The position numbers were made by a program, and so were the translations under genes. Below are positions 50,507 to 59,688 of a DNA stretch of 64,000 bases, one piece after another; position 1 is the first letter of the stretch, and the number at the start of each line of letters is the position of its first letter. Source of the stretch: Formosa sp. PL04 (GTDB taxonomy: Bacteria; Bacteroidota; Bacteroidia; Flavobacteriales; Flavobacteriaceae); NCBI RefSeq assembly GCF_033447105.1, contig NZ_JAWQUN010000002.1, positions 416,856 through 480,855 of the forward strand, given 5' to 3'. The notes below the pieces were generated by a model. It saw only the letters and a program-made list of their open reading frames with translations, was not told where the DNA came from and ran no database searches.

Positions 50507-50542
50507 CTTACTTACTTACTTACTTACTTACTTACTTACTTA
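50507..50542. repeat. Tetranucleotide microsatellite (CTTA)9, equal to (TAAG)9 on the minus strand. It abuts and includes the GH94 stop codon.
   Basis: Nine perfect tandem units, seen directly. Confidence 0.95.
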
Positions 50543-52975
50543 TTTCATTGTAACTATTATAGTGTGTTCTTTTCCTGCTTCAAGGATTGGAACAATATGC
50601 GTATTCATTTCTTTACCGTTCACACTAATTTTTGCAACACCTTTACTGTTATGGTTTGGGTTTACAACTTCAATATTATAAGTTGCTCCTCTAAATTTAC
50701 GTGTCATATCAAATCCATCCCATTCTTTTGGAATACAAGGATTAATTGAAAGCCCATTATAATCTGGCTTTACGCCTAAAATGTATTGCGTAATTGCATA
50801 AAAATTCCAAGAAGCCGTTCCTGATAACCAAGAATTTTTAGCTTCCCCTGGTTTAAAAGCTTCTTTTCCGGCAATCATTTGACAGTATACGTAAGGTTCT
50901 ACTTTGTGCAATTCAGAAATTTCTTCTAAAAAACTAGGTGCAATTTTTGTATAATAATCATAGGCTTCATTTCCTCTTCCAATCATAGTTTCACCAATCA
51001 TAATCCAAGGATTGTTATGACAAAAGATCCCTCCATTTTCTTTATATCCTGCTGGATATGTAGAAATCTCACCATATTCAATATAATATTTTGTAAACGC
51101 TGGACTGTTTAACACAATGCCGTACTCACAATCTAAATGTTCTTTTACTGCGTTTAATGATTTTTCAACCAAGCCTTCTTCTTTACCAATCTCAGCCATG
51201 GTACACCAACCTTGAGATTCAATAAATATCTTTCCTTCTTCATTTTCGTTAGAACCTACTTTTTTACCGTAATAATCATAAGCACGTAAATACCATTCGC
51301 CATCCCAACCGTGTTTTTTCACAGCTTCAATCATATTATTTACATGGACTTCTGCCGCATCAGCTTCTTCAGTTTTGCCAATAACATGACATAAATTCAC
51401 GTATTCTTTACCGTACATTACAAACAACCCTGCAATCATTAAAGATTCTGCAGTACCACCTTTTTTATTTCCTGTAGTTTGAAAAGATTCATTTGGATCT
51501 TCGGAAAAACAATTCAAATTCAAACAATCATTCCAATCTGCGCGTCCAATTAAAGGTAAATTATGTGGCCCTAAATTATTTACAACGTGGTAAAACGATG
51601 CTGTTAAATGATCAAAATGTGGTTTTGCTCTTGATGCATCATTATCGAAAGGCACCAGTTCATCTAACAATGAAAAATCTCCTGTTTCTTTAATATATTC
51701 AGTAGTTGAAAGAATTAACCAAAGTGGATCATCATTAAAATCTCCACCTACAGCAGCATTCCCCTTTTTGGTTAACGGTTGATATTGATGGTAACAAGAA
51801 CCATCTTCAAATTGCGTTGAAGCAATATCTACAATACGTTCTCTTGCTCTCTCTGGAATTTGATGCACAAACCCAATTAAATCTTGGTTTGAATCACGGA
51901 ATCCCATGCCTCGCCCAATTCCAGATTCAAAAAACGAAGCAGAACGTGACATATTAAAGGTAACCATACATTGGTATTGGTTCCATATATTTACCATTCT
52001 ATCTAATTTCTCATCGTTAGATTGAATGTTTATTGTTCCTAATAAATTATCCCAATAGGCACCTAACTCATCAAAAGCATCTTGTACTTTTTCAACCGTG
52101 TTATACTTGGCAATCATTTCCTTTGCAGGGGTCTTATTGATAACCGATTTGCTCTCCCACTTATTATCTTTATCAACCTCAACATAACCCAGCATAAAAA
52201 CATAGTCTTTTTCTTCACCTGGTTGCAACTCAACTTCTATATAATGAGATGCAATTGGCGACCAACCATGAGCTACGGTATTTTTTGGTTTTCCATAGGC
52301 TACAACATCTGGATTTTCAAAGCCATTGTACAAGCCAATAAAAGATTCCCTATCAGTATCAAATCCTTGAATAGCTTCGTTTACAGAATAAAAAGCATAA
52401 TGATTTCTACGTTCTTTAAACTCCGTTTTGTGATAAATTACGGAGTCTTCAATTTCAACTTCACCTGTATTAAAGTTACGTTGAAAGTTGGTCATATCAT
52501 CTTCCGCATTCCACAATGCAAATTCAATAAAAGAGAATAATTTTATATTTTTAACTGCTGAAGTCGTGTTTTTTACACTTACTTTTTGAATTTCACCCCA
52601 AAAACCAAGTGGAATAAATTGCAATACTTCCGTTTGAATTCCGTTTTTAGCACCTTTAAACTTGGTGTAACTCATTCCATGACGGCATTCATAACTGTCT
52701 AATTCAGTTTTTACCGGTTTCCAACCTGGAGACCATGTAGTATCACCATCTTTTATATAAAAATACTTTCCACCGTCATCAACAGGCACATTATTATAAC
52801 GATAACGTGTTAATCTTCTAAATTTTGCATCTTTATAAAAAGTATAACCACCTCCAGTATTTGAGGTTAGTGAGAAAAAATCTTCATTCCCAAGATAATT
52901 AATCCATGGGTAAGGTGTTTTTGGGTTTGTGATTACATATTCCCTATTTTCATCATCAAAATGACCGTATTTCAT
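50540..52975 (-). CDS. GH94 disaccharide phosphorylase (cellobiose / cellobionic-acid / laminaribiose phosphorylase family)
   Basis: N-terminus [60 protein letters not shown] closely parallels known cellobiose phosphorylases. 811 aa. Confidence 0.8.
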
Positions 52976-58352: not shown

Positions 58353-59688
58353 TTTCACACTTATTTCAGCCGTATGTATTGGAATTGCAGTCTTACTTTT
58401 TTTAATATTAAAACTGCGAATTCAAGCTTTTATCGCTCTGTTAATAGCAAGTATTATTGTTGGTATTATTTCAGGAATGCCTCCCATGGAAATTATTGCA
58501 ACTATGCAAGAAGGTATGGGAAACACCCTTGGTTTTGTAGCTGTAGTTGTAGGTTTGGGAGCTATGTTTGGAGCTATTTTAGAACATTCAGGTGGTGCAG
58601 AAGCTTTAGCGAATTACTTACTGAAAAAATCTGGCGAAAAGAATGCTTCTTGGGCATTGGTATTCACTGGGTTCTTTATTGCAATCCCCGTGTTTTTTGA
58701 TGTCGCTTTTATCATTTTAATTCCATTGATTTATTCCCTTCAACGAAAAACTAAAAAATCATTATTACTATACGGAATTCCATTACTTGCCGGATTAGCC
58801 ATTACACATGCTTTTATCCCTCCAACTCCAGGACCCGTAGCGGTTGCCGATATATTAAATGCAGATTTAGGTTGGGTGATTTTATTCGGTTTTATAACTG
58901 GAATCCCTACAGCCATAGTATGCGGTCCATTATTTGGAAAATACATTGCTAAAAAAATCTATATTGAAGCTCCTAAATTGACGCTAGAAACCCAAGAAAA
59001 AACTTCTTTTCCTTCGGTTTATCTAATCATTTCAATTATTAGTATTCCTATTCTTTTAATAGTTAGTAATACGGTAATTAATAGTCCGCTAGTTTCCAAT
59101 GAAACCATTCCTTTGCACGTTAAAGAATGGCTACAAATGATTGGGCACCCTTTTTCAGCATTAATAATTGCTAATTTAATAGCTTGGTATGCCTTGGGAA
59201 TAAAACAAAATTTCAGCAAAGAATCTTTATTAAAAATCACCACAAAATCAATGGAACCTGCAGGAATTATAATTTTACTAACGGGTGCTGGAGGTGTTTT
59301 TAAACAAATATTGGTAAATACTGGAACGGGTGAAATGTTGGCAAATTATTTTGCAAATGAAGGTGTTAGCATTCTTTTATTTGCATTTTTAGCAGCAGCA
59401 ATAGTCCGTATTTTACAAGGATCTGCAACAGTTGCAATGATAACTGCTGCAGGAATTACAGCGCCATTAATCGCTTTAAACACTTCAGAAATAGACAAAG
59501 CTTTATTAGTAATTGCAATTGCTTCTGGAGCTTCAATTATGTCGCATGTAAATGATAGCGGATTTTGGTTGGTAAGTAAATATTTAGGGATGAATGAAAA
59601 ACAAACGTTTAGAAGTTGGACGGTTATGACTACCCTATTAGCAATTACGGGTTTTGCAACGGTTTCTGTTTTATCATTGATTTTTTGA
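58345..59688 (+). CDS. GntP-family gluconate:H+ symporter
   Basis: About 12 TM helices. GntP-like glycine-rich segments. 8-nt overlap with gntK-gnd. Confidence 0.75.
   Translation: MIDFTLISAVCIGIAVLLFLILKLRIQAFIALLIASIIVGIISGMPPMEIIATMQEGMGNTLGFVAVVVGLGAMFGAILEHSGGAEALANYLLKKSGEKNASWALVFTGFFIAIPVFFDVAFIILIPLIYSLQRKTKKSLLLYGIPLLAGLAITHAFIPPTPGPVAVADILNADLGWVILFGFITGIPTAIVCGPLFGKYIAKKIYIEAPKLTLETQEKTSFPSVYLIISIISIPILLIVSNTVINSPLVSNETIPLHVKEWLQMIGHPFSALIIANLIAWYALGIKQNFSKESLLKITTKSMEPAGIIILLTGAGGVFKQILVNTGTGEMLANYFANEGVSILLFAFLAAAIVRILQGSATVAMITAAGITAPLIALNTSEIDKALLVIAIASGASIMSHVNDSGFWLVSKYLGMNEKQTFRSWTVMTTLLAITGFATVSVLSLIF

Follow-up and report, generated by a model that had tools for sequence, protein, structure and literature searches.

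What are genes for gluconate use doing in a locus for beta-glucans, and does the phosphorylase beside them explain their presence? The question is raised by a 64-kb stretch of DNA from Formosa sp. PL04 (contig NZ_JAWQUN010000002.1, G+C about 33%), here called the window, in which all positions below are counted. Open reading frames were called across the window and scanned with hidden Markov models (Pfam, and the curated TIGR/NF models with their cutoffs). They confirm what the earlier note on this DNA had seen, that a GH94 phosphorylase, a GntP-type transporter, a gluconokinase fused to 6-phosphogluconate dehydrogenase (GntK-Gnd), a GH1 and two GH3 enzymes share one locus. The range given there, 50540-59688, holds the core genes, while the second GH3 gene (GH3b, 59782-62034) and the GH1 gene (37798-39186) lie outside it, and an esterase gene beside GH94 (53308-54195) had not been mentioned. 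According to our analysis, the best explanation of the whole is a utilisation locus for beta-glucans and cello-oligosaccharides with two cytoplasmic entry routes, to which we give a probability of about 45%. That the GH94 enzyme is a cytoplasmic cellobiose phosphorylase, and that the locus is built as described below, is highly probable from the sequence.

The GH94 gene (50540-52975, minus strand; Pfam GH94 catalytic domain 558 bits, supersandwich domain 292 bits) is apparently monocistronic, and its product, which matches a protein of Formosa sp. PL04 with 100% identity, has no signal peptide. We searched the protein against all PDB sequences. It scores 1348 bits with the Clostridium thermocellum cellobiose phosphorylase CtCBP (3QDE) and 1113-1127 bits with the Cellvibrio and Cellulomonas cellobiose phosphorylases (CgCBP, 2CQS: 1127), followed by chitobiose phosphorylases (406-503 bits), the GH94 domain of cyclic beta-1,2-glucan synthase (285 bits), the Saccharophagus cellobionic acid phosphorylase SdCBAP (4ZLE, 149 bits) and cellodextrin phosphorylases (90-96 bits). 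Global alignments are collinear over the full length, with 69.0% identity to CtCBP over 810 positions and 59.5% to CgCBP over 807. In C. gilvus numbering, we take Asp490 to be the catalytic acid, Arg351 and His666 the phosphate ligands, and Trp488 and Gln712 part of the -1 subsite, with Gln165 and Arg166, both contributed by the partner subunit, and Arg362, Glu649, Tyr653, Lys658, Asn667 and Thr508 forming a +1 subsite of glucose type. All of these are kept in the window protein, the first five as D483, R344, H653, W481 and Q699, and the +1 residues as Q165, R166, R355, E636, Y640, K645, N654 and T501; T731 of C. gilvus has become S718. In SdCBAP, the +1 subsite reportedly binds the carboxylate through Arg609, Lys613 and Gln190, a description credited to Nam et al. 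2015. Within GH94, sequence identity between the classes of cellobiose, chitobiose and cellobionate phosphorylase stays below 30% (PMC5309861).

Because of the bit scores, the 69% identity to CtCBP and the retained active-site residues, the enzyme is predicted to be a cellobiose phosphorylase of the EC 2.4.1.20 type. The earlier note had taken it for a cellobionic acid phosphorylase, which the same three lines of evidence largely refute; clustering with the cellobiose phosphorylases, named there as the first half of a case against the proposal, is what scores, identity and residues give. Two other candidates were rejected, a cellodextrin phosphorylase on its score of about 90-96 bits and a laminaribiose phosphorylase, for which no PDB structure was matched at E <= 0.001. 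GH94 adds one more member to an enzyme class already characterised; all other components of the locus likewise come from well-known families.

The neighbours of GH94 in other genomes are not gluconate genes. Orthologues with 85-91% identity are common in Flavobacteriaceae, where they are accompanied by MFS_2 transporters, AraC regulators and SusC/SusD pairs, and gluconate genes are absent except in one close relative. An MFS_2 gene lies immediately before GH94 in Algibacter pacificus, where its product is 67% identical to that of the window, and likewise in Maribacter arenosus. Because this pairing recurs, we infer that the functional partner of GH94 is a disaccharide importer, which fits the phosphorolysis of cellobiose in the cytoplasm. 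The MFS_2 protein of the window (39204-40814, minus strand; Pfam MFS_2, 303 bits) is an inner-membrane transporter of the glycoside-pentoside-hexuronide type and a likely importer of cellobiose or beta-glucosides. In Lutibacter agarilyticus a block of GH3a (the first GH3 gene of the window), GH94, AraC and SusC-SusD-FG-GAP is orthologous throughout, with 73-90% identity, and adjoins GH17, GH2, GH5 and another GH3. The nearest relative of the window locus, L085/L086 (related loci are cited by L numbers), has GH94 next to esterase-GH3a-GntP without kinase or dehydrogenase, and GH2, GH16, GH3 and GH5 come after these genes.

Across a divergent intergenic region of 332 bp (52976-53307), where promoters for both directions are presumed from the sequence, GH94 faces a plus-strand series of genes in the order esterase, GH3a, GntK-Gnd, GntP and GH3b. 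The first of them encodes an exported alpha/beta-hydrolase carboxylesterase (Pfam Abhydrolase_2, Peptidase_S9 and DLH) with a lipoprotein-like N-terminus, whose top PDB match is a Thermotoga esterase (3DOH, 1.8e-39). Its orthologues, 60-73% identical, lie upstream of GH3 in L001, L030, L046, L050, L085 and L095. GH3a (54207-56459; NF011678, 682 bits, cutoff 666) is a beta-glucosidase of BglX type, matching the periplasmic beta-glucosidases 3U48, 5XXL and 6R5I in the PDB; its reading frame opens at GTG 54165, and ATG 54207 is the probable start. The GntK-Gnd fusion, a single open reading frame of 628 residues (56466-58352), is separated from the GH3a stop by 7 bp and shares its last 8 bp with GntP (58345-59688). 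Between GntP and GH3b, the final gene (Pfam GH3 N-terminal, C-terminal and Fn3-like domains), is a gap of 94 bp without stable structure (z = 0.45). After GH3b a strong terminator hairpin with a U-rich tract closes the series (62061-62111, plus strand; -23.6 kcal/mol, z = -8.7), and none of 200 shuffled sequences folds as well. Because the gaps measure 7, -8 and 94 bp, the interior is free of structured elements and a strong hairpin comes at the end, the five genes appear to lie on a single transcript. A sigma-70 scan was uninformative (57 hits, 54.9 expected), Bacteroidota promoters differing from the consensus used.

Lipoprotein-type signals are found on GH3a (MKKYFLILIIFTFISC), on GH3b (a lipobox-like LSFYSC motif), on the esterase and on the FG-GAP protein described below (LVFLVSC), and there is none on GH94, GH1 or the cytoplasmic GntK-Gnd. 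Gluconate transporter, kinase and dehydrogenase each pass the cutoff of their curated family. In the fusion, residues 1-150 form a gluconokinase of the GntK/IdnK type (TIGR01313 on residues 3-150, 153.7 bits, cutoff 113.75) and residues 162-627 a decarboxylating NADP 6-phosphogluconate dehydrogenase (NF006765, 573.4 bits, cutoff 413; TIGR00873, 564 bits, cutoff 426.7). The transporter is a putative gluconate:H+ symporter of the GntP family (Pfam GntP_permease 495 bits; TIGR00791 455 bits, cutoff 292.75). With the E. coli equivalog models of specific transporters and kinases, the window proteins stay under the cutoff.

How widespread the fusion is was seen in a census of genomes, in which 378 encoded relatives of GntK-Gnd were confirmed and the best 80 loci kept, as one set of species loci. 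All 80 come from Bacteroidota, 68 with the two genes fused and 11 with them split. Kinase and dehydrogenase of the window join end-to-end, the gntK stop codon being gone and the start methionine of gnd still visible (KRMNKATIGIIGLG). An exact-sequence look-up of the fusion matched no record; as a novelty it is nevertheless ruled out by the 68 fused relatives and by a junction that is plain stop-codon loss. The fusion is common in Bacteroidota and by itself not diagnostic of a substrate. Among the 80 loci, GntP adjoins it in 19, an SMP-30 gluconolactonase in five, an orthologue of GH3a in five, and a GMC oxidoreductase in eight, seven of which have the Gluconate_2-dh3 small subunit as well. A further 29 are alginate-lyase loci, recognised by the markers Nramp-like, PL7, PL6 and PL17.

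The alginate loci belong to Winogradskyella, Psychroserpens, Lacinutrix, Olleya, Polaribacter and others (L012-L016, L021, L024, L026, L027, L031, L034, L035, L037, L040, L041, L043-L045, L049 and more). In L049, which was fully annotated, the fusion stands between PL6/KdgK/PL7 on one side and an Nramp-like transporter/PL7/PL17/SusC on the other. Our guess is that it supplies NADPH there for the reduction of 4-deoxy-L-erythro-5-hexoseulose uronate (DEH). In L003-L008 and L011 (for instance L005:6693-11875) the GMC oxidoreductase, the Gluconate_2-dh3 subunit and the fusion stand in a row, within which L005 and L006 also have the gluconolactonase. The row looks like a periplasmic sugar oxidation that feeds the pentose-phosphate pathway in Flavobacteriaceae.

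The connection of the gluconate genes to GH3 is a separate matter from the fusion. A second sample consisted of 80 metagenome contigs with close GntP orthologues (70-83% identity), among which gntK-gnd-gntP is the invariant core. Linkage of this core to GH3 was found in five of the 80 species genomes, in six of the 80 metagenome contigs and in two further contigs. Because it recurs in other marine Flavobacteriaceae genomes and in metagenome contigs, the linkage is beyond chance. In 15 of the metagenome contigs a lactonase gene lies immediately upstream of the trio; the lactonase is combined with GH3a in six, five of which have an FG-GAP/ASPIC gene and some SusD or SusC. The order esterase-GH3-(lactonase)-GH3a-gntK-gnd-gntP, with FG-GAP nearby, is seen in L001, L030, L046 and L050, the last with GH5 and SusD/C in addition, and the gene order recurs in L039. 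In L088, whose GH3 bears the database name Tenacibaculum adriaticum, GH3-lactonase-GH3a-gntK-gnd-gntP adjoins SusD/SusC and a hybrid two-component regulator. The gluconolactonase is present in L030, L050 and L088, and the lactonases of the related loci carry lipoprotein signals and are thus exported. In L085 and L095, gntP alone stays joined to GH3a.

Some related loci carry further sugar genes. After GntP in L101 (11484-14826) and L102 (11354-15623) come an MFS_2 transporter, an AGE-family protein (cellobiose 2-epimerase-like) and a Cip1-like protein, preceded in L102 by a LacI regulator; judged by these genes, another disaccharide route is apparently attached to the gluconate module there. 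In L030 (13351-15404) GntP is followed by a protein with a 3-keto-disaccharide hydrolase domain (DUF1080), which hints at oxidative (3-keto) glycoside chemistry nearby, and by an FGE-sulfatase-like protein. By tblastn, the window has no counterpart of this hydrolase, or of the GH5 and the heptahaem cytochrome of related loci.

The explanation that we favour would work as follows. SusC and SusD, which with the FG-GAP/ASPIC lipoprotein make up the outer-membrane part of the locus, would import oligosaccharides. By the first route, MFS_2 would import cellobiose, which GH94 would convert to glucose-1-phosphate and glucose, while GH1 would hydrolyse other beta-glucosides or, as an alternative to GH94, cellobiose itself. 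By the second, the exported GH3 enzymes would trim glucose off the non-reducing end, and where the reducing end is oxidised at C1, to an aldonolactone or aldonic acid, the last GH3 cut would free gluconolactone or gluconate in the periplasm. The lactone would be opened by the lactonase in the relatives, and in the window locus spontaneously or by an unlinked enzyme. GntP would then import gluconate, and GntK-Gnd would turn it by way of 6-phosphogluconate into ribulose-5-phosphate, CO2 and NADPH. The trio gntK-gnd-gntP, often with an exported gluconolactonase, would be a mobile unit that was recruited downstream of GH3a in several Flavobacteriaceae lineages.

It is plausible that beta-glucan use is linked hydrolytically to gluconate or gluconolactone. 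That the gluconate stems from C1-oxidised glucan ends is a more tentative proposal, at somewhat less than even odds. Gluconolactone is a classical inhibitor of beta-glucosidases, so that an exported lactonase beside GH3 genes makes sense. In Zobellia galactanivorans the genes ZGAL_587-589, for a periplasmic gluconolactonase, the transporter GntT1 and a DgoD-like dehydratase, are up on laminarin compared with glucose, and were read by their authors as a path from lactone to gluconate to import (PMC5613140). This transcriptomic hint is the one piece of earlier literature that we found on a link between beta-glucans and gluconate in marine Flavobacteriia, and we found no literature on cellobionic acid, gluconate and lytic polysaccharide monooxygenases (LPMOs) together in Bacteroidetes. 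The use of C1-oxidised beta-glucans, as the earlier note had it, gains independent support from the position of the gluconate genes between exported GH3 enzymes, the lactonase in relatives and the laminarin-induced unit of Zobellia, and loses the part that ran through phosphorolysis by GH94. If this holds, GH3 enzymes would do the hydrolysis in the periplasm and gluconate would then be imported, with no phosphorolysis of cellobionate.

Several observations weigh against this explanation. With two lactonases from related loci as tblastn queries, no gluconolactonase was found in the 64-kb window (best E = 0.019), nor did tblastn and Pfam find an oxidase, LPMO or dehydrogenase in it, which leaves the origin of the oxidised sugar unexplained. 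Only five of 80 genome loci and six of 80 metagenome loci have an adjacent GH3a, most contexts of gntK-gnd-gntP being unrelated, and the orthologous locus of Lutibacter agarilyticus has no gluconate genes within 10 kb. Because 29 of the 80 species have the fusion in an alginate locus, its occurrence in a polysaccharide locus is not specific for a gluconate-yielding substrate. Finally, co-transcription is deduced from spacing and hairpins only.

The same observations could mean that there is no coupling to a substrate at all, the trio being a generic mobile unit for gluconate scavenging and the pentose-phosphate pathway that was inserted here by chance, with Gnd perhaps in a housekeeping role. 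It would account for the many unrelated contexts of the trio, for the Lutibacter locus without it and for the retention of gntP only in L085, and Bacillus subtilis has the three equivalent functions, permease, kinase and 6-phosphogluconate dehydrogenase (GntZ), in the stand-alone operon gntRKPZ under the GntR repressor. However, the insertion lies exactly between two exported GH3 genes, with junctions of 7 and -8 bp and no terminator. In addition, the junction of GH3a with the gluconate genes recurs in several lineages with different SusC/D, often together with an exported lactonase, and gntP alone is kept beside GH3a in L085 and L095. We consider a chance insertion unlikely.

It is also unlikely that the cell makes the gluconate itself. 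Here, periplasmic glucose or reducing ends would be oxidised by a dehydrogenase coded elsewhere, of the type of GMC oxidoreductase with small subunit, and the product taken up through GntP, in effect a peripheral oxidative route like that of Pseudomonas, joined to a polysaccharide locus. The eight GMC oxidoreductases near GntK-Gnd, seven of them with Gluconate_2-dh3, and the gluconolactonase in L005 and L006 are in line with such a route, and an exported lactonase implies that the lactone arises outside the cytoplasm. On the other hand, neither the window nor any GH3-linked locus has such a dehydrogenase, the GMC-linked loci are without GntP, and induction of the Zobellia unit on laminarin compared with glucose is at odds with a simple oxidation of glucose.

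The known substrates of GntP-family carriers are monomeric sugar acids and not disaccharides, which counts against the cellobionate phosphorylase proposal. Although the characterised cellobionate phosphorylases are GH94 members that need a gluconokinase downstream (PMC4537572), and GH94 and the gluconate genes have a common divergent promoter region in the window and in L085, the proposal that GH94 releases glucose-1-phosphate and gluconate from imported cellobionate, with GntK-Gnd consuming the latter, retains next to no probability in view of the PDB scores and identities, the +1 residues of cellobiose phosphorylase type including the acidic equivalent of E649, the conserved MFS_2 partner, and the absence of GH94 from all 160 gluconate-module loci (80 genome and 80 metagenome).

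A polysaccharide utilisation locus of full SusC/SusD type is contiguous across 37.8-62.1 kb of the window, with neighbouring SusC and SusD, an AraC regulator, GH1, two GH3 and GH94. On the minus strand are GH1 (Pfam Glyco_hydro_1, 618 bits; N-terminus MKKFPVDFVWG without a signal peptide, probably cytoplasmic) and MFS_2, and because a non-coding, AT-rich gap of 630 bp (40815-41447) precedes this pair, parting it from the FG-GAP gene, the two may have a promoter of their own. The FG-GAP/ASPIC-UnbV repeat lipoprotein of 1096 residues (41448-44738; Pfam FG-GAP_3, 262 bits, and UnbV_ASPIC), the outer-membrane lipoprotein SusD (44844-46379; Pfam SusD_RagB and SusD-like_3) and the SusC/RagA TonB-dependent transporter (46400-49405; TIGR04056, 780 bits, cutoff 368) are also encoded on the minus strand. 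The AraC-family protein (49522-50442, plus strand; Pfam HTH_18 and HTH_AraC) has orthologues of 82-83% identity in the equivalent position in L081 and L082. Because this position between GH94 and SusC is kept in relatives, the protein probably regulates the locus. The genes araC and GH94 converge, and a terminator-like hairpin separates their 3' ends (50449-50478); its folding energies are -13.7 kcal/mol on one strand (z = -6.4) and -14.2 kcal/mol on the other (z = -4.6), and it probably acts as a terminator in both directions.

The gene for the lipoprotein of about 1100 residues with FG-GAP and ASPIC-UnbV repeats is conserved in such loci, where it follows SusD, with homologues in L001, L030, L046, L050, L081, L095, L100-102 and L109. 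The protein's sole relative in the PDB is human CRTAC1 (E = 1e-15), and we found no literature linking FG-GAP/ASPIC proteins to SusC/D loci. The protein may be a surface glycan-binding protein. In two uncultured Flavobacteriaceae, L001 (3084-4316) and L046 (3048-4298), the FG-GAP/ASPIC gene is immediately followed by one for a cytochrome c of about 410 residues that has seven CXXCH motifs, a redox protein in a glycan locus, and both genes adjoin esterase-GH3-GH3a-gntK-gnd-gntP. The FG-GAP/ASPIC protein might even take part in sugar oxidation.

Elsewhere in the window, a partial locus of starch type (223-7218) comprises a TonB-dependent receptor (C-terminal part only), SusD, a SusE/SusF-like protein and a GH13 alpha-amylase of 967 residues whose C-terminal sorting domain is of the type IX secretion kind. 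At 14167-20089 lies a conserved gene pair, a DUF2126 transglutaminase-like 'putative amidoligase' (1117 residues) and then a circularly permuted ATP-grasp/Alpha-E fusion of 853 residues. The minus-strand cluster at 25985-34887 encodes a DUF3686/DUF7902/AAA ATPase of 1625 residues, an SPFH/Band-7 protein of 692 residues and three small open reading frames, and an HTH_19 regulator (35153-35908) adjoins it; a PADLOC scan of the cluster gave no convincing match to a defence system. Past the terminator of the utilisation locus are an HTH-like fragment of 88 residues (62449-62715), possibly the remnant of a transposase, and a tRNA-Leu gene (63379-63461), and it is plausible that they mark a boundary of gene gain for the region. 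The Rfam scan of the window found this tRNA only.

Few descriptions exist of gluconate and lactone genes embedded repeatedly in GH3 operons of beta-glucan loci in marine Flavobacteriaceae. There may be a locus type composed of SusC/D, FG-GAP/ASPIC, exported GH3 enzymes, esterase, exported gluconolactonase, GntP and GntK/Gnd, usually with the MFS_2 route. That it is a recurrent type for C1-oxidised beta-glucans in marine Flavobacteriaceae, with the window as a member merged with the cellobiose phosphorylase route, is a doubtful though conceivable generalisation; if true, marine bacteria would have a regular source of carbon in glucan fragments ending in a lactone or aldonic acid, made by oxidases, LPMOs or photochemistry. 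If the module serves the locus, marine Flavobacteriia would harvest the oxidised ends of beta-glucans such as laminarin or cello-oligosaccharides, a fate of algal carbon that has barely been considered, and would have a bacterial, hydrolytic counterpart of the fungal aldonic-acid pathway. If it is a passenger, the locus is an ordinary one for beta-glucan and cellobiose. Two cautions for annotation follow from the comparisons: a GH94 gene beside gluconate genes gives no grounds for annotating a cellobionate phosphorylase, and the GntK-Gnd fusion, being widespread in Bacteroidota, marks no single substrate.

Among known systems, the gluconate module has its counterparts in gntRKPZ of B. subtilis and GntI of E. 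coli, which likewise have a GntP-family permease and a GntK kinase, in B. subtilis with the dehydrogenase GntZ. The window differs in the fusion of kinase and dehydrogenase, in having no GntR and in the flanking glycoside hydrolases. The GH94 enzyme is like CtCBP and CgCBP in its catalytic Asp, phosphate-binding Arg and His, +1 residues and lack of a signal peptide; it differs by its place in a Bacteroidota utilisation locus, beside an esterase/GH3/gluconate operon, and its activity is predicted. With the cellobionic acid phosphorylase pathway (SdCBAP; Xanthomonas XCC4077; Neurospora NCU09425 with gluconokinase) it has the GH family in common, and that pathway also requires gluconokinase and the pentose-phosphate pathway downstream (PMC4537572). 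However, the window enzyme has only 149 bits to SdCBAP and acceptor-site residues of cellobiose phosphorylase type, and its locus has no evident transporter for cellobionate. The N. crassa enzyme CAP is specific for cellobionate (PMC4537572).

The extracellular branch of Neurospora crassa resembles what we propose. There, the secreted beta-glucosidase NCU08755 splits cellobionate into glucose and gluconate (PMC4537572), so that an exported beta-glucosidase precedes uptake and phosphorylation of gluconate, as suggested for the window. That branch is fungal and its genes are unclustered, whereas in the window transporter, kinase, dehydrogenase and GH3 are in one bacterial operon and the activity of GH3 on aldobionates is a prediction. 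ZGAL_587-589 of Zobellia is a unit of marine Flavobacteriia in which beta-glucan use is tied to uptake of gluconolactone and gluconate, and its combination of lactonase and GntP is common to the relatives of the window locus. Unlike it, the window has no lactonase, a kinase and decarboxylating dehydrogenase in place of the dehydratase, and the genes inside a GH3 operon. Finally, SusC/SusD, a regulator, GH3 exo-glucosidases and a lipoprotein downstream of SusD are shared with the loci for laminarin and mixed-linkage beta-glucan in other Bacteroidota. Orthologous loci of the window carry GH16, GH17 and GH5; the 24-kb locus of the window is unlike other beta-glucan loci in having no endo-glucanase, and it adds to their common plan GH94 and the gluconate module.

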